DNA from: a virus | Lineage: Duplodnaviria; Heunggongvirae; Uroviricota; Caudoviricetes | Virus record (IMG/VR): IMGVR_UViG_2728369187_000001 | Length of the DNA stretch: 16,925 nucleotides | Direction: 5' to 3' (one strand) | Part shown: positions 1 to 8,427 of the stretch, piece after piece | Layout: the number at the start of each line of letters is the position of its first letter | How positions within the stretch are numbered: the stretch's first letter is position 1 | The notes under the pieces: generated by a model | What the model was told of the DNA's origin: nothing | Seen by the model: only the letters and a program-made list of their open reading frames with translations | Database searches by the model: none | Program-made: the position numbers and the translations under genes

Positions 1-546
1 GTTGCCCCACAATTGAGCAGTAACACCAGCATAAGCGGTTCCCTGTGTGTTTAATGTCATGGTTGACCCATGATTGGCATATTTGATCTGTAATGTGTCG
101 GTGTAATTAAATTTAATAAGCGCGTTACTTCCACGCTTGCTGTATGACATAAGGCAGTTACCCATTTTGAGGTATCCGCTGTCACCGGGAAAAATCATCG
201 TACCGCCATAAAGGTTGGTAAAGTCCCAGCAAATGTTTGTCCCGTTATCGTTCAGGTTAAGGCGCGCCATTGCGTTACCTGGACTGTCTATCCATTTTTT
301 GAGGTATAGTTCGCAATACGCATCCTCAACACCTGCCGTCCTGTGAGTTGAGCGGAGTTTTCTCCCAAATATAGCTCCGCTAGTTGGCAATACCTGCTGA
401 TACCATGAAGCAGACCAGTCACCAACGATTTCATCTTTGCTGTCTACATATAATTTTGTTGCGTAGCTTCCTTGATCGTTTTTTAATTTGCTAACGTCGG
501 ATTTTAGCGTTTTGATGTCATCAGGAATTACTGTCGATGTAGCCAT
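1..546 (-). CDS. Hypothetical protein, N-terminal 182 codons only (gene continues beyond window start); function unknown, possibly tail-fibre-associated or a moron
   Basis: ATG at 546-544 preceded by a GAGGAAG Shine-Dalgarno ~5 nt upstream; hand translation of the minus strand stays open for all 182 codons to position 1 (MATSTVIPDDIKTLKSDVSKLKNDQGSYATKLYVDSKDEIVGDWSASWYQQ...TAQLWGN). Absent from the supplied ORF track because no stop lies in the window. Starts 9 nt after the stop of the upstream ORF. Confidence 0.55.
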   Translation of the reverse strand, partial: MATSTVIPDDIKTLKSDVSKLKNDQGSYATKLYVDSKDEIVGDWSASWYQQVLPTSGAIFGRKLRSTHRTAGVEDAYCELYLKKWIDSPGNAMARLNLNDNGTNICWDFTNLYGGTMIFPGDSGYLKMGNCLMSYSKRGSNALIKFNYTDTLQIKYANHGSTMTLNTQGTAYAGVTAQLWGN

Positions 547-555
547 TTTTCTTCC

Positions 556-837
556 TCACATCCAGCCACGAAGTTGATGCTCAACAGCAACCACGTATTC
601 ATCGAATAATGATGATATTTGCGAATCATTAATGATGCGCACGTTTACAAAATATCCGTCTTCCTTAACACATACCGGTTCGCCATCTTCAGTCAGTTCT
701 CCGGTTTCTTTGTACACGTTACCTATCACGTCAATAAGAATATCATCCTGCATCGACTCGTCATCATAATAGCCAATACTCTCCATAAAGGCCGAAAAGT
801 CGGCCCTGTCGGCAAATTTGAGTGTTAAATCTTTCAT
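556..837 (-). CDS. Small highly acidic protein (93 aa), translationally coupled to the tail fibre gene; candidate tail-fibre chaperone, function unknown
   Basis: ORF track 556..837. Its ATG (837-835) overlaps the TAA stop of the upstream fibre gene (TAATG). About 21 Asp/Glu against ~7 Lys/Arg, no signal peptide or hydrophobic segment. I recognise no family; it does not resemble lambda Tfa. Confidence 0.6.
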   Translation of the reverse strand: MKDLTLKFADRADFSAFMESIGYYDDESMQDDILIDVIGNVYKETGELTEDGEPVCVKEDGYFVNVRIINDSQISSLFDEYVVAVEHQLRGWM

Positions 838-3680
838 TAGATTGACTCCCCCACCTGAGCATCAGTCAATGCCTTGTGCCATATTCTGAAATTCCTGACA
901 TGACCAAATAAATGACGTAACCCGGCTGTAGTCTGGCCTCCAATACGGATAATTGCGGTGTTCTGAATACAGGACCATGTGGTTTTTGTTTCGCTGGATA
1001 TATGCCCGTTACTTACTGAGCACGTAGACTGCTCTGACTTTACACGCATCCCCATAACCATTTTTTCAAGCGATGCGTTTTCGTTTACCCGTCTGTTAGC
1101 TCCTCCAATATCGCAATAAGGAAATCCGTCGTAATCTGTTGAACGACCGAAACCAAGAATAATAGCCGCTCCGGTTTGATGACCGCCGGTATCAAAAACA
1201 CGTGGCGCTGCATTTGGCGTTTTATACCAGTTCTTATGTACCTCACAAAGAACCGTAAAAGGAAGATTATAAAGATTATTCTTAATTGGAACTGTAACTA
1301 TATCGCTTGCGCGGGTCGCCGCCGTCGCTCCTGATATAATAAAAGATGATACACAAGGCCCATCTTCTACTTGTGGGGTGGCCAGATAAATATAGTCACC
1401 AGATACGGTTGCCCCGCTCTGCTTAGGAGAATACTGTATCTGAGAGCCTATTTTTAACTCCCCATCAATTGCCTGAATTGTTGCCTCTGCAAAAATCCAT
1501 CCGGTAGCTTCGTCCTTTCTGACTCTCGCTGTAATCCTTGAGGCAGCACCGCCTGTCATATTAATTTCAAGCGTTTGTGTATCAATATACGCATCACCAA
1601 GAAAAGTTGTTGCGCTACCGTCATATTTATCAAACCGGATACGCAACCTTACCTGCAGTTCTGTTTTAAAACGACATGAGGTTGTCACGTGTTTATTATC
1701 GCCTGAGACATCAACTGACTTTGTTGCAGCAATTGATGCCATATTAATGGCTGAGGTTTGCCCAATCAGAGAATCGTTGCAGACAAACTTTCCATAGGTA
1801 AAACCAAAATTATCCGTCCCTGTTTCGGGCACATCCATATTTGACGATCGCCCCCAACTGGCAGGGCTTTCCGAATTGAGCATGTAGTTTGTTCTTTGCC
1901 CCTCAATAAGCAGGCCATCACGTTCAAATCGTGGCTCGTCAATGGCAGCCTCTGTCAGCACACCAGATTTGTTAATATAGGTTGCTTTCGATGCACGTTT
2001 AAACTTAACAATCTTGTCGCCAGGCATCGTTATTTCATCGTCACCAATAACAATTTTTTTATATGATGGCGAAAAGCCCGTAATCATATCCAGCGAATCG
2101 TTAAATGGTATCCACACATCAGGCAGCGGCTGTAAGACATATTTATACGGCTCCGCAGCCTGGCTTGCGTACTCTCTGGCTGCATCTTCGCTTGCTTTAG
2201 CTGCCGTCTGGCTTGCTGCCGATGCTTTCGCTGAGTTCGCAGCCGCTGTTTCGCTCACCTTTGCGTTGGTTTCACTGGTTTTTGCTGCTTTTTGACTGTT
2301 AGCTGATGCAGTAGCAGAAGCAGCCGCCGCGCTTGCAGAACTGGCTGCGGCACTCTCGCTTTGGGCCGCTGCATCCTGACTGCTTTTCGCCGCAGTTTCA
2401 CTGGCTTTGGCATTCGTTTCGCTGGTCTTCGCTGCCGTCTGGCTGGACTTTGCGTTAGTTTCACTCGTCTTCGCAGCTTTCTGGCTGTTAGCCGCAGCAG
2501 TTGCTGATCCAGCTGCTGAAGTCGCAGAACCGGCTGCCGCGCTCTCGCTTTGGGCTGCTGCAACCTGGCTGTTTTTTGCTGCAGTTTCACTGGCTTTAGC
2601 ATTCGTTTCGCTGGTCTTCGCTGCCGTCTGGCTGGACTTTGCGTTGGTTTCGCTCGTCTTTGCGGCTGTCTCGCTATTTTTCGCGTTGGTTTCTGATTTT
2701 TTAGCTGCTGTTGCGGAGTTTGCCGATGCAGTCTGCGAGGCCGCTGCCGCCTGTGCGCTGTTAGCTGCATTCGTTTCTGAGGTTTTCGCCGCGTTCTTCG
2801 ATGATGCCGCTGCAGTTTCGNNNNNNNNNNACCAGCTGCTGAAGTCGCAGAACCGGCTGCCGCGCTCTCGCTTTCAGCTGCTGCAGCCTGGCTGTTTTTT
2901 GCCGCAGTTTCACTGGCTTTAGCATTCGTTTCGCTGGTTTTCGCTGCCGTCTGGCTGGACTTTGCGTTGGTTTCGCTCGTCTTTGCGGCTGTCTCACTGT
3001 TTTTCGCGTTGGTTTCTGATTTTTTGGCTGCTGTCGCGGAGTTTGCCGATGCAGTCTTTGAGGTCGCTGCCGCCTGTGCACTATTAGCTGCATTCGTTTC
3101 TGAGGTTTTCGCCGCGTTCTTCGATGATGCCGCTGCAGTTTCGGATTTCTTTGCCGCCGCTGCGCTCTGAGAGGCGGCTTCGGCGTTGCGTGCCACTTCT
3201 TCCACCATTGCCTCAAAACGACGCAATGCCTCCGGCATGACATCATCTTCCGTCATGGCACCGAGAAAATCATTCAGCGTACCTGGTCTGGAACCTTCAT
3301 AGACGGTAATGGTTCCGGCATGTGAAGGCGGAAAACCTTCAACAAGCAGGATAACGCTGTACTGGCCATACTCAACATCCATGCTGTAACGCCCGGCTTC
3401 ATCCGGATTTTCAGAGGCCACCGTGTTCACNNNNNNNNNNGCCTTCATAGACGGTAATGGTCCCGGCATGTGAAGGCGGAAAACCTTCAACCAGCAGGAT
3501 GACGCTGTACTGGCCATGCTCAACATCCATGCTGTAACGCCCGGCTTCATCCGGATTTTCAGAGGCCACCGTGTTCACCAGTACCGTGGTGCTGTTACGC
3601 TTTGCCTTCAGTTGAATAGTGCAGTTCTGTATTGGTTTTCCCGCACCATCTTTCAGCACACCTGAAATCTGTACTGCCAT
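837..3680 (-). CDS. stf: Side tail fibre protein (Stf-like): lambda-Stf-type N-terminus, long Ala/Ser/Thr/Lys/Glu repeat shaft, lectin-like (LamG/ConA-type) C-terminal domain; reading frame broken by two N10 gaps
   Basis: N-terminus MAVQISGVLKDGAGKPIQNCTIQLKAKRNSTTVLVNTVASENPDEAGRYSMDVE.GQYSVILLVEGFPPSHAGTITVYEG matches my recollection of the lambda Stf N-terminus. ATG at 3680-3678 with GGAG 6 nt upstream (the track start at 3686 is a GTG). Track ORFs 3411..3686, 2255..3550 and 837..2258 are pieces of one gene: hand translation shows the 837..2258 frame is open upstream of the GTG at 2258 (...ANSQKAAKTSETNAKVSETAAANSAK...), so that GTG is an internal Val. Frame changes occur only at the N-runs. 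C-terminus ends ...GLRHLFGHVRNFRIWHKALTDAQVGESI. Confidence 0.8.
2821..2830. other. Assembly gap (10 N) inside stf repeat region
   Basis: Run of n; flanked on both sides by ~310-nt near-identical copies (2509..2820 and 2832..3143). Confidence 0.95.
3431..3440. other. Assembly gap (10 N) inside stf 5' region
   Basis: Run of n; flanked by ~150-nt near-identical copies encoding VNTVASENPDEAGRYSMDVE[H/Y]GQYSVILLVEGFPPSHAGTITVYEG. Confidence 0.95.
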
Positions 3681-3740: not shown

Positions 3741-6700
3741 TCAACGGATACTGATACCGGAAGCAGCTTTTTTGGTCACAATCACCGTACAGTCTGTGAT
3801 GTTACCTGCGCCCTGATTGCCTTTCTGGAAAATCTTAAACTCCAGAGTGACGTTACCACCACCACTCGGCATATCAATAACCGCACTGTAACTACCGGGA
3901 ATGGCTCCTTTAGTTTCTCTGGATGCGATTAATACGCCATTTTTGCGAACTTCAAAACCATAACCCGTGTATCGCGTACCTCCCGGGTTATTACCGCTCC
4001 CCGGATCGTCATACGCCACACCGTTAAAAATAATGGGCGGAATAATGATTTGGCGGTCAAAGTTATGATCATCGTAAATGGTGACTGTAACCGTCCCGTT
4101 TGGTGTTTCCGTGTTACCCCACGTACCAGCCTTTTTCGGGAATGATTTGGATACAGTTTTAACGAAGTCACCTCTGACCTGGTTCGCCTCCAGCATGCCC
4201 TTAATCGTACAGTTTTCATTTACCGTGACATTATTGAGCGTCCCGGAGTTCGCATTCACGTTACCGCTGATATCGGCATTTCTCGCCGTCAGCCGCCCGT
4301 CCGGTGTCAGGGAAAATGCCGGAGGATTACCGCCGCTGGTAATGGTGGGAGCCGTCAGATACTTCAGGAACACTTCGTTCATGAATATCTGGTTGCCCTG
4401 CGCCACAAACATCGGCGTTTCATTCCCGTTTGCCGGGTCAATAAACGCGATACGGTTAGCGGCAACCAGGAACTGGCTCAGTTTGCCTTCCTCCGTATCC
4501 TCCATGCTGAGGCCAAGCCCCGCGACATAATGTTTGCCGTCTTTGGTCTGCTCAATTTTGACGCCCCACATGGCATTCCATTTATCGTTGGCGTCCTTCC
4601 ACTCTTTCGAAAACTCCTCCAGTCTGCTGGCGTTATCCTCCGTCAGCTCGACTTTTTCCAGCAGCTCCTTGCCGAGATGGGATTCGGTTATCTTGCCTTT
4701 GAAAAAATCCAGGTAACCTTCCGCATCATCGCTCGCCCGACCGACGGCCTCCACGAATGCCGATTTGCCAACGGTGTTCACACTGCGGATATAAAAGTAA
4801 TAATCATGGCCCGGTTTGATATTGATACTGGCGGCTATCCAGTACAGCGCCGTACCAAGATAGCGGGCTGTGGTTTCAACCTGCCTGATATCGGTAATCC
4901 GCTTTTCCGAGAACCAGAACTCAAACTGTACCGTCGGATCATAAATCGCAAGATGCGGCGTGGCGGTTATCTGAAAATAGCCCGGCGTCAGCTCAATCCT
5001 CGACGGTGCTGCCGGTGCGGCAATCCGGAACGATACCGATGCCGGATCGCCCTGCTGTCCCCACGCATTTACCGCCCGGACCGTCAGCGTGTAACGCCCC
5101 AGCGCCAGTTGCCTGAAGCGGTATGTGGTTTCCGTCGTCCGGGCCGTGCTGACCAGCCGCTCACTGCCGTCGTCCGCTGCCACGGTCAGGCGAAGCATAA
5201 AGCTCACGCCCTTCACCACCTTCGGCGTGTCCCAGCGTGCCAGCACCTGATATTCCCCGCTGTCTGCGGTGACTTCGGCAGTCAGGTGCTGCACCGCTGG
5301 CGGCGTGACACCATTCACCGTGCCGCTCTGGTCGCCGTCAAAGTGCGCCCCGTTATCCACGATGGCCTCTTTCTCCGGCACATGCTGCACGGCGGTGATG
5401 GCATACGTGCCGTCATCGTTCTCACGGATACTCACGCAGCGGAACAGGCGCTGGCGCAGCGTCGGCAGCTTCAGCCCCCACACGCTGTATTCAGCAACAC
5501 CGTCAGGAACACGGCTCACTTTTACCTTCACGCCATCGGTGACAGACTGAACCTCCACGCTGACCGGATTGCCATTTCCGTCAACCAGGCTTATCAGCGT
5601 GGTGCCGGAGGATGGCAGCATGATTTCACGGTCGAGCGTCAGTGTCCGGGTCTGGCTGTTCACCGCCAGCACGCGACCACCGGTGCTGATACCGGCATAG
5701 TCANNNNNNNNNNNNNNNNNNNNNNNNNNNNNNNNNNNNNNNNNNNNNNNNNNNNNNNNNNNNNNNNNNNNNNNNNNNNNNNNNNNNNNNNNNNNNNNNN
5801 NNNNNNNNNNNNNNNNNNNNNNNNNNNNNNNNNNNNNNNNNNNNNNNNNNNNNNNNGTTACGACAGTAACGGGCAATGGCCTGCGTGTCCTCCACAAGCT
5901 CTGTCGCCGTCTCCCAGCCGTTATCCGGGTCAATCCAGTTCACCTCAACGGCATTATGGCGGTCCTTCAGGGCGCTGAAGCTGTAGCGGAACGGCGCGCC
6001 ATCATCCGGCATCACCACATTACTGCGGTTATAGGTCCACACCTTATCCGACGGTCGGTCCTGCACGAACGTCAGCGTCTGCCCGTTCCATACCGGCATA
6101 CAGCGCATCGCCGAGCAGAAATCACTGAGAACATCCCACGCCTTACGCTGTGTGGTCAGGTAGGCATTACAGGAAATGCGCGGCTCCGTGCCACCAAAAC
6201 CGTCCGGCACCGACTGGTCGCAATTCTGGCCGATGACATACAGCGCCCATTTGTCCACATCCGCCGCACCAAGACGTTTACCCATGCCGTAGCGCGGGTG
6301 GGTCAGCATATCCCACAGACACCAGGCCATGTTGTTGCTGTATGCTGGCTTAAACGTTCCGTCCCAGATACCGCTGTATTGCCGCGTCTGCGGGTTATAG
6401 TTCGACGGCACCTGCAGAATGCGCCCGCGAAGATGATAATTACGGCTCACCTGCTGGCTGCCGAACTGTTCCGAGTCCACCTGCACGCCGACCAGTGCCG
6501 TGTTCGGGTAGCACTGTTTCACATCGATGATTTCGGTGTATGACGACCAGAGCGTTTTGTTCTGCAGCTGGTCTGTGGTGCTGTCCGGTGTCATCCTGCG
6601 CATCCGGATATTAAACGGGCGCGGCGGCAGGTTACCCACCACCACCGATGCCAGATACTGTGAGGTGGTTTTGCCTTTAATGGTGATGTCTTTTTCCGTC

Positions 6701-7147
6701 ACCCAGCCACCGTTACGCTGTATCTGAACCAGCAGGCGGACTTCCGACGGATTCCGGTCCCCCTTTGAGGTGGTTTCCACCAGTGCCTGCACACCGAAGG
6801 TAAAGCGCAGACGGTCGATGTTTGCAGACGTGATGGTCCGGGTGATCGGCGTGTCGTATTTCACTTCCGTACCCAGCACCGTCTCGGAGCCGGAGGATTC
6901 AAATCCCTCCGGCGGTGTCTGCTCCTGCTCACCTGCCCGGAAAACCACCGTGACACCGGAGATATTGGTATTCCCCTCACTGTCCAGCACTGGCGTACTG
7001 TTCAGCAGCACACTTTTTAATCCGTCCACCGGACCTTCAATCGGCCCTTCACTGATGGCGTCTATCACGCTCAGCATCTGCGTGGACTTCAGGTTGTCCT
7101 TCGCTTCGCGCGGGGTATGCCCCTTACTGCTGCCTTTNNNNNNNNNN
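3741..7147 (-). CDS. J: Host specificity / central tail fibre protein J (tail tip); start codon lies in an N-run, internal 153-N gap, divergent C-terminal receptor-binding region
   Basis: Track ORFs 5701..7209 (frame valid after the 7138-7147 gap: [41 protein letters not shown]...) and 3741..5933 (...[27 protein letters not shown]...) match lambda gpJ over ~1000 aa by recollection. The two pieces are in different frames because the N-run length is arbitrary. Stop TGA at 3743-3741. Confidence 0.9.
5704..5856. other. Assembly gap (153 N) inside J
   Basis: Run of n. From the lambda J alignment it replaces roughly 55 codons between ...ARYCRN and DYAGIS... Confidence 0.95.
7138..7147. other. Assembly gap (10 N) covering the J start codon
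   Basis: Run of n immediately 5' of codons KGSSKGHT; a GGAG lies ~10 nt upstream of the expected ATG. Confidence 0.95.
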
Positions 7148-7853: not shown

Positions 7854-8427
7854 TTGTCGGTATACCTCTCTCGTTTGCTCAGTTGTTCAGGAATATGGTG
7901 CAACAGCTCACCGTCGCCGCAGTAAATGGCGGCATGATTCGGCACCGATGAACCAAAACAGCACAGCAGCACATCGCCCGGTTGTGCTGATGACAACGGC
8001 ACCTGATACAACCCTGTGGCCTCCAGATTATCCAGATAGAGATTCTGACCGTGACGCCACCAGTCATCCTCGCGATGAAAATCCGGCATCTCAATCCCCG
8101 CCAGATGGTAAGCATCCCGGAACAGCGTGTAACAGTCCGTCACCCCGTGCTCAAAGCGCCGCCCGGAAAGATGTGGCACACAGCGGAACTTGTGAATCGC
8201 CCCCCGGCAGACCAGCCACCACGGCAAATCACTCTGCNNNNNNNNNNNNNNNNCTCTGCCCGCAGCCAGTCCTCCGGCGACATCCGGAAATACTCCTCCG
8301 GCTCACCGGAGATATTCACGCAGGGAAAATATCTTTCCCCCTCCGGTGTTCTCACCACGAAGCCGCACGACTCCGCTGGCGCACATCGCCGGGCGTGCGC
8401 CAGAATCGCTGATTCTGTCTGTGTCAT
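7751..8427 (-). CDS. K: Tail tip assembly protein K (N-terminal MPN/JAMM-type domain plus C-terminal NlpC/P60-type domain), interrupted by a 16-N gap
   Basis: Track ORFs 8140..8436 (MNPMTQTESAILAHARRCAPAESCGFVV...SPEDWLRAE) and 7751..8227 (PWWLVCRGAIHKFRCVPHLSGRRFEHGVTDCYTLFRDAYH...) match lambda gpK by recollection. Start taken at the MTQTESA Met (8427); an upstream ATG at 8436 is also possible. Confidence 0.85.
8238..8253. other. Assembly gap (16 N) inside K
   Basis: Run of n flanked by the same hexamer ctctgc on both sides. By comparison with lambda K it replaces ~28 codons, including the region expected to carry the HSHPGG metal-binding motif. Confidence 0.95.

Follow-up and report, generated by a model that had tools for sequence, protein, structure and literature searches.

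A small acidic protein family accompanying lectin-tipped tail fibres of coliphages: candidate fibre accessory proteins in a lambda-like E. coli prophage and beyond

Introduction

The closest described counterparts of the gene considered here are proteins that fold or join phage tail fibres. Tfa-type proteins are needed for the folding of fibre tips, and some of them remain on the fibre. The T4 protein gp57A, which acts on trimeric fibres, is a small, acidic and all-helical protein; it serves several fibres and is encoded by a gene that does not lie beside them. T4 gp35, finally, is a non-trimeric joint encoded between the genes for the proximal (gp34) and the distal (gp36/37) half-fibre.

In this report we analyse a window of 16,925 nucleotides, i.e., the whole stretch of phage DNA in IMG/VR record IMGVR_UViG_2728369187_000001, and focus on an open reading frame (ORF) that codes for an acidic protein of 93 amino acids and directly follows the tail fibre gene stf. 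The small ORF shares single traits with each of the systems above. Tfa, P2 gpG and Mu U (Caudo_TAP, PF02413) are likewise encoded directly 3' of the fibre that they serve, yet Tfa-type proteins comprise 175-194 aa, adopt another fold, do not match the ORF product in sequence and co-vary with the tip, which the ORF does not. Small size and acidity are shared with gp57A; however, the ORF product is predicted to form a five-stranded sheet with three helices, and the two proteins show no sequence match. T4 gp38 is larger, tip-specific and related to the ORF product neither in sequence nor in fold. The position between two fibre genes is that of gp35, but the latter comprises approximately 370 aa and has no similarity to the ORF product; moreover, unlike in the gp35 arrangement, the small ORF occurs also without any distal fibre. 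A preliminary description of the window had set the protein apart from Tfa-, gp38- and gp57A-type chaperones, and this distinction holds: there is no Pfam or NCBIfam match and no fold relation.

A second RBP that docks by a short, conserved N-terminal peptide or region, comparable to the one at the locus described below, is known from the Klebsiella phages KP32, K11 and KP34 (PMC6872550, PMC13352976) and from LtfA/LtfB of the T5-like phage DT57C (PMC4728585, PMC10713586). Docking in these systems, however, involves either a T4gp10-like branching domain or a site on the shaft, a third small protein is absent, and the DT57C locus contains neither a lectin tip nor a gene of phrog_1361, the family to which the small ORF belongs. 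A homologous module is found in the lateral tail fibre locus Gp22-Gp23-Gp24 of phage IrisVonRoten (BASEL Bas32), where the tip of the proximal fibre Gp22 is 63% identical, Gp23 (92 aa) belongs to the same family as the small ORF (profile-HMM E-value of 5e-33), and Gp24 is a T-shaped distal fibre with the same docking peptide. The distal fibre of the window (346 aa in phage Tritos) differs from Gp24 in being a short fibre with an intramolecular chaperone (IMC) rather than a dual-RBD protein. The second BASEL paper describes the C-terminal domain of Gp22 as “galectin-like”, proposes that Gp24 attaches to the proximal fibre and models Gp22 and Gp24 separately; Gp23 is annotated as “tail fiber protein” and neither modelled nor discussed (PMC11990801). 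A further homologue of the Stf tip, GhsB of RcGTA (Rcc01080; PDB 6tb9), is a head spike fibre of which one subunit stands on a pentameric base (PMC7296036). For mar004NP2, “two genes upstream of ltfB” are mentioned and nothing further is said on them (PMC6563131), and papers on BF23, lambda vectors and lambdoid co-transfer do not mention the ORF. No published function for the ORF family was found in the literature.

The Fibre Locus of the Prophage

The window represents the minus-strand late operon of a lambda-like E. coli prophage and is 99.7% identical over 2.3 kb to the phages HannyBb, Tritos and PhiR63_1. Its fibre locus comprises the following features:

2259..3680, minus strand: remainder of stf, with a phage_tail_N N-terminus (ATG at about 3680) and a repeat-rich shaft
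837..2258, minus strand: C-terminal 473 codons of stf, coding for the end of the Ala/Ser/Thr-rich shaft and a lectin-like tip of approximately 450 aa (GTA head-spike-fibre/LamG type)
846..852, minus strand: Shine-Dalgarno-like GGGGGAG, read from the sequence, within the end of stf and 8 nt 5' of the ATG of the small ORF
835..839, minus strand: TAATG overlap of the stf TAA (839..837) and the ATG of the small ORF (837..835)
556..837, minus strand, stop codon included: acidic 93-aa ORF, member of phrog_1361
1..546, minus strand: first 182 codons of a distal (second) tail fibre, phrog_4563, running off the window
469..546, minus strand: N-terminal docking peptide of the distal fibre, approximately 26 aa (MATSTVIPDDIKTLKSDVSKLKNDQG), consensus M-x-T-x-T-x-IP-x-DIT-x-LK

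The start codon of the small ORF overlaps the stf stop, as the preliminary description had observed; one base is common to both codons, and the coding strand reads CTAATG. Counting also bears out the acidity of the product (21 D/E versus 7 K/R) and the absence of hydrophobic segments from the 93-aa sequence. The protein has a mass of 10.7 kDa, a pI of 4.05, a GRAVY score of -0.23 and a net charge of -14. Features beyond this earlier picture are the ORF's own Shine-Dalgarno site, a GAGGA over its stop codon and the nature of the downstream gene, a second tail fibre, whose ATG (546) is found 9 nt past the TGA of the ORF, with the GAGGA overlapping that TGA. The GC content amounts to 41.5% in the ORF, 45.3% in the tip and 43.8% in the distal fibre gene, compared to 52.4% in the window overall; this low-GC fibre-tip module (window 1-2258) is consistent with a horizontally exchanged host-range cassette.

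No single stf ORF is listed, because runs of N with duplicated flanks at 2821-2830 and 3431-3440 interrupt the gene; further N runs in the window are located at 5704-5856, 7138-7147 and 8238-8253. The N-terminal Stf segment VNTVASENPDEAGRYSMDVE[H/Y]GQYSVILLVEGFPPSHAGTITVYEG is encoded on either side of the gap at 3431-3440, and therefore, the gaps are scaffold joins with duplicated contig ends. A “GTG 2258” start of the fibre ORF is an artefact of this kind, as stf starts near 3680 and is split by scaffold gaps; along with stf, the gene J is cut into artificial ORFs by the N runs of the window. The stf coordinates of Tritos could not be carried over, given 300 mismatches and a differing repeat content. 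The repeat shaft of Stf (KTSETNAKNSETAAK..., Ala/Ser/Thr/Lys/Glu-rich; window 2255-3550) also gives rise to long ORFs that are spurious, be it on the other strand or in a different frame, e.g., 2407-2922 (plus) and 2761-3246 (minus).

A Conserved Family of Small Acidic Proteins

The 93-aa ORF is a real late gene under purifying selection. Its residues 1-93 match the phrog_1361 profile over the full length (positions 1-92 of 92) with an E-value of 2.4e-46, and AKFV33 orf136 and naswa_55 likewise match PHROG 1361, which is annotated as “unknown function”. Homologues are present in 181 phage records (tblastn). An exhaustive HMMER scan of 1.8 billion representatives returned 52 clusters, and hence, the family is small and narrow; a single cluster of the ORF at 90% identity is seen on about 700 contigs. 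The length of the family members is held at 85-110 aa over 25-100% identity. Using the pairwise Nei-Gojobori method, 38 distinct lambdoid alleles gave a mean dS of 0.108, a dN of 0.020 and a dN/dS ratio of 0.19, and the ratio was 0.06 for a pair of rV5-like phages and 0.14 for AKFV33 versus BRET. An apparent excess of nonsynonymous change in a naive count of variant codons was rejected, since that count included a metagenomic sequence of 25% identity.

The preliminary description had named poor conservation, together with a lack of expression, as a sign of a spurious ORF, which would here be a non-coding spacer between two fibre genes. Apart from the small size and the lack of named homologues nothing speaks for such a spacer, and the end-to-end family match, the 181 records, dN/dS ratios well under 1 in several lineages, the constant length, the confidently predicted fold and the Shine-Dalgarno site all speak against it. 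The conservation data exclude this reading, and we consider it extremely improbable.

The earlier statement that the protein matches nothing stands with respect to annotated domains and structures: Pfam and NCBIfam scans of the 93-aa protein returned zero matches at E<=1, and a PDB sequence search with the ORF-family profile yielded E~1 noise alone. The statement does not stand with respect to catalogued families, in view of phrog_1361. Structure prediction of the single chain, proposed at the time along with the profile search, resulted in an AlphaFold2 model (22-sequence alignment) with a pLDDT of 87 and a pTM of 0.74. The predicted fold follows a beta-alpha-alpha-beta4-alpha order, i.e., a five-stranded sheet plus three helices, with a less ordered C-terminal tail. 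Structural matches to this model are weak and generic, and a BFVD search returned uncharacterised phage proteins only. As modelled, the small acidic alpha/beta fold would resemble those that protein-binding modules typically have. Residues conserved across the family include D3, L6, F8, D36, I38, G39, G61, V64, N65 and R67 as well as the C-terminal end P-x-R-x-W-(A/M/S), and D3, D36, N65, R67, R90 and W92 are among the conserved polar surface residues. The net charge within the family ranges from -4 to -18. The 52 representatives did not include any natural fusion between the ORF and a fibre; two long matches among them represent repeat-protein noise.

The Lectin-Like Tip of the Upstream Fibre

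The N-terminus of Stf is of the lambda Stf type (phage_tail_N). Its tip matches the NCBIfam model GTA_spike_fiber (E-value of 1.2e-13), the RcGTA head-spike fibre Rcc01080 (PDB 6tb9; phmmer E-value of 1.2e-7) and, weakly, the Pfam domain Laminin_G_3. An AlphaFold monomer of the tip reached a mean pLDDT of 49.8 and is confident only at residues ~90-260; this core of an otherwise poor model resembles the fibre chain of Pa193/E217, CBMs and legume lectins. The model was used solely to confirm a lectin/CBM-like sandwich, and interface reasoning was excluded. The profile and structure matches, together with the lectin-resembling model core, support the notion that the tip is lectin-like, in agreement with what the preliminary description had put forward.

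A comparison of 53 distinct tips shows conserved ends (the first ~100 and the last ~40 residues) on either side of a hypervariable middle. Judged from this pattern, the tip termini may form a conserved docking surface for the ORF protein. The lectin-tipped Stf has no Tfa gene of its own, a Pfam search revealed no T4gp10-like domain in Stf, and the Peptidase_S74 domain (PF13884) is absent from both Stf and the small ORF and present in the distal fibres.

Linkage of the Small ORF to Lectin-Tipped Fibres

In 80 of 80 IMG/VR prophage loci a small ORF of 94-100% identity is located directly after a homologous tip, the identity of which spans 41 to 100%. The same order, with the ORF directly downstream of a lectin-like fibre tip, is found in approximately 17 annotated phages of seven lineages. 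Loci in which the fibre is followed by the ORF include:

T1-like: tunus, PeterMerian, BabyEgg
Dhillonvirus: KarlBarth
Seuratvirus: VogelGryff
Nonagvirus: BRET
T5-like: VSe12, IrisVonRoten, AKFV33
rV5-like: naswa, LL12
Jouyvirus and other lambdoids: D2, ev017, 1H12, PhiR55_1
P2-like prophage: locus L096
Metagenomic contigs: L086 and L087, with ORFs of merely 25-29% identity

Across these lineages the start and stop codons of fibre and ORF overlap by 1-4 nt. Where enterobacterial loci were chosen by the tip rather than the ORF, a family member was present in 7/7; the sole negative among the tip-picked loci is the remote Rhodobacter phage RcWaterboi, where the GhsB-like gene has no family member beside it. 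By tblastn, the tip domain occurs in 219 phage records compared to 181 for the ORF, and in each of the shortfalls checked (AKFV33, BRET, PhiR55_1) the gene is a family member by HMM. In Vequintavirus, the ORF is confined to the subset with a lectin tip; the ORF search returned 36 rV5-like records, and the tip is present in rV5-like records, too. The idea that the gene might always adjoin this fibre type thus holds throughout the enterobacterial loci examined, and the co-occurrence with a homologous lectin-like tip supports its being a dedicated partner of that fibre. On this comparative basis, the ORF is inherited with the lectin tip across at least seven phage lineages and is translationally coupled to the fibre gene.

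The P2-like prophage locus L096 (1-3999, GCA_024165985.1) deserves separate mention. Here, the lectin tip recurs (94% identical) at the end of an H-type fibre, which is followed by the small ORF, a 303-aa distal fibre and a Caudo_TAP Tfa gene, such that the locus holds both a Tfa and a small ORF, each after its own fibre. In this distal fibre, the docking peptide is joined to H-like shaft repeats, which lead to a P2-type tip. Given this gene order and the shaft repeats on either side, the cassette appears to have been inserted into, and to split, a myovirus P2 H-type fibre gene.

Several loci keep the ORF in the absence of a distal fibre. In the Jouyvirus lambdoids ev017, 1H12 and D2, stf and the ORF precede the gene for a 97-aa membrane protein (phrog_1443), after which comes sitABCD. 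The gene next to the ORF in rV5-like phages codes for Dit (distal tail protein), and the metagenome locus L087 lacks a distal fibre as well. The RxW tail of the ORF is kept in Jouyvirus and L087, and the rV5-like version is devoid of both the RxW tail and a distal fibre. Since the ORF is kept and constrained without a distal fibre, its constant partner is the lectin-tipped fibre.

Some further observations concern these loci. The 97-aa predicted membrane protein of unknown function (L093 3792-4085, L094 3792-4085, L089 5792-6085, L002 5170-5463) lies right after the small ORF and beside the iron/manganese transporter cargo sitABCD in Jouyvirus, and after the distal fibre in Tritos; the two versions are 96% identical. 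L087 (116-2739) encodes a 467-aa lectin-tipped fibre, a family member, a 73-aa ORF and a second lectin-tipped fibre gene, which suggests that tandem lectin fibres exist in some uncultured phages. Finally, T5-like, rV5-like or lambdoid fibre modules of coliphages occur at up to 98% identity in records labelled “Campylobacter phage” (C11-C15, A116 and others) or “Listeria phage LM 4-...”, which are probably mislabelled or contaminant contigs.

The Distal Fibre and Its Docking Peptide

The full-length distal fibre of phage Tritos comprises 346 aa and ends in a Peptidase_S74 intramolecular chaperone. Otherwise unrelated distal fibres have only their first ~26 residues in common (M.T.T.IP.DIT.LK), and the fibres that bear this peptide include the short IMC fibre, phiEco32-like fibres, a fibre with a P2-type tip and Tfa, and Gp24 of IrisVonRoten, a T-shaped dual-RBD protein. 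With the N-terminus of Gp24 as query, residues 27-70 match the interior of single-gene fibres of many phages (e.g., DT57C ltfA, phiKT, Wifcevirus), and residues 1-26 are seen only in phages carrying the module. A docking peptide in a second RBP with a conserved N-terminus characterizes branched-RBP systems and is found here as well; therefore, a role of the small protein as joint or adaptor is a serious rival to that of a chaperone.

Relatives of the distal fibre gene of the window include L002 5506-6546, and homologues carry the BASEL label “putative lateral tail fiber chaperone”, which is probably a mislabelling of a whole fibre, prompted in all probability by the C-terminal Peptidase_S74 domain. 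In the record of Salmonella phage VSe12 (L004 6289-7231) a frameshift, due either to a sequencing error or to decay into a pseudogene, splits the distal fibre into a 64-aa N-terminal piece with the docking peptide and a 277-aa product annotated on its own as “tail fiber protein”.

Possible Roles of the Small Protein

As the ORF always directly follows the lectin-tipped fibre, its product is most likely a dedicated helper or a joint piece and not unrelated cargo. Our preferred reading, held tentatively and at a little less than an even chance, is that of a dedicated accessory protein or assembly chaperone, which binds the conserved tip base of the lectin-tipped fibre. It is favoured because each distal fibre brings its own chaperone, in the form of an IMC domain or of the Caudo_TAP gene present in the P2-like L096, while the proximal fibre has none save the ORF. 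According to this proposal, the protein would be made in step with the fibre and would bind the tip base, i.e., the first ~100 and last ~40 residues; these remain constant when the sugar-binding middle is exchanged. Acting as a chaperone or cap, the bound protein would allow the end of the trimeric shaft and the three lectin domains to fold and would keep them soluble. Contact would probably be made by the face of D3, D36, N65 and R67 together with the C-terminal R-x-W tail. The protein may also remain bound and help to form the docking site for the distal-fibre peptide, which is not needed for the core claim.

The lambdoid ORF, however, is 94-100% identical while the tips vary from 41 to 100%, and classical fibre chaperones such as Tfa and gp38 co-vary with the tip that they fold. 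Moreover, the gene order and the lineage-wise co-divergence of ORF and docking peptide fit an adaptor equally well. AlphaFold-Multimer folded the Gp22 tip trimer of IrisVonRoten confidently without a partner (PMC11990801), a model that gives no hint of a missing subunit, yet is silent on folding in vivo.

A serious rival, though less likely than the chaperone, is a role of the protein as a structural joint or adaptor, a virion protein at the end of the lectin-tipped fibre that receives the conserved N-terminal peptide of its distal counterpart. The tip, the small protein and the docking peptide would in that case make up a portable unit for branching or for a knee, with a function like that of gp35 between the half-fibres of T4. 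The order proximal fibre, ORF, distal fibre is kept in lambdoid, T1-like, Dhillonvirus, Seuratvirus, Nonagvirus, T5-like and P2-like loci; the ~26-residue peptide is module-specific and residues 27-70 of the distal fibre are a generic shaft segment; together, ORF and peptide make up a conserved stretch that is flanked by two hypervariable cassettes, and they co-diverge by lineage. The lack of co-variation with the tips, the joint loss of RxW tail and distal fibre in rV5-like phages, the apparent splitting of the P2 H-type fibre in L096 and the attachment of Gp24 to Gp22, proposed in PMC11990801 and left unmodelled there together with Gp23, point in the same direction. Yet the ORF is intact and under purifying selection in the absence of any peptide-bearing distal fibre in rV5-like phages (dN/dS 0.06), Jouyvirus and L087, the latter two of which even retain the RxW tail. 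In an extended form of this reading, of similar likelihood, lectin tip, small protein and ~26-aa peptide would be a portable “fibre-splitting” cassette that recombines into almost any sipho- or myovirus fibre gene, adds a glycan-binding tip and re-attaches the distal part non-covalently, with the small protein as the joint subunit. Chaperone and joint roles are compatible and not mutually exclusive. Any other tip-linked role is improbable, e.g., that the protein masks the lectin site reversibly or acts as a regulator, which would stop new fibres from sticking to glycans or debris before release. The strict linkage to the lectin tip, the strong acidity (family net charge of -4 to -18) and the conserved polar surface residues would suit a mask; on the other hand, the hypervariable middle of the tip, which presumably binds the ligand, shows no co-variation with the ORF, O-antigen and capsule are absent from the cytoplasm, where fibres fold, and we know of no precedent.

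The alternative raised in the preliminary description, a moron such as an anti-restriction DNA mimic, would make the ORF an independently acquired acidic cargo gene that follows stf by chance. The product is indeed small and, like DNA mimics, highly negatively charged (net charge -14), the GC content of its gene is 41.5% compared to 52.4% in the window, and the locus lies near the variable end of the prophage, where relatives hold cargo such as sitABCD. The low GC content, however, is common to both flanking fibre genes, no bracketing promoter or terminator above shuffled expectation was detected, and the 1-nt overlap with the stf stop upstream and the 9-nt gap to the fibre gene downstream leave the ORF embedded in a late tail operon, whereas anti-restriction genes are early genes. 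Pfam scans, which include Ocr and ArdA, gave no match, nor is there a PDB relative, and the gene is found not only in temperate phages but also in strictly virulent T1-like, T5-like, Seuratvirus and rV5-like ones, without exception behind this one type of fibre. The moron reading is accordingly rejected as very improbable.

Virion studies touch upon these loci at a depth too shallow to bear on the presence of the small protein in particles. In the study on swan01 and mar004NP2, 5-8 proteins were detected; for mar004NP2 these include MAR004NP2_00160, judged from gene order probably the proximal fibre, but not the small protein and the distal fibre. The AKFV33 study is based on 4 gel bands. One published SDS-PAGE/MS result from AKFV33 concerns ORF137 (784 aa, L090 1954-4575), for which a mass of 83.1 kDa was calculated and 95.8 kDa observed. 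The family member orf136 (10.1 kDa) adjoins ORF137. The mass excess could be a gel anomaly or an SDS-stable complex.

Conclusions

The small ORF represents a catalogued yet uncharacterised family, which, as far as gene neighbourhoods tell, is an obligate companion of lectin-tipped fibres. Sequenced coliphages and Salmonella phages with such side or lateral fibres number in the hundreds, and a great many E. coli prophages carry them as well; the fibres are glycan-recognising host-range organelles that phage engineers swap. If the ORF protein folds the tip or hangs a second fibre, chimeric fibres without the ORF would fail or lose one specificity, and annotation pipelines should drop the label “hypothetical”. 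The protein would then stand for a fibre accessory family unrelated in sequence and fold to Tfa, gp38, gp57A and intramolecular chaperones, and under the “fibre-splitting” reading it would be a new class of fibre connector. A role of this kind would also explain how proximal and distal fibres are joined in T5-like, T1-like and lambdoid phages, a question left open by the BASEL analysis.
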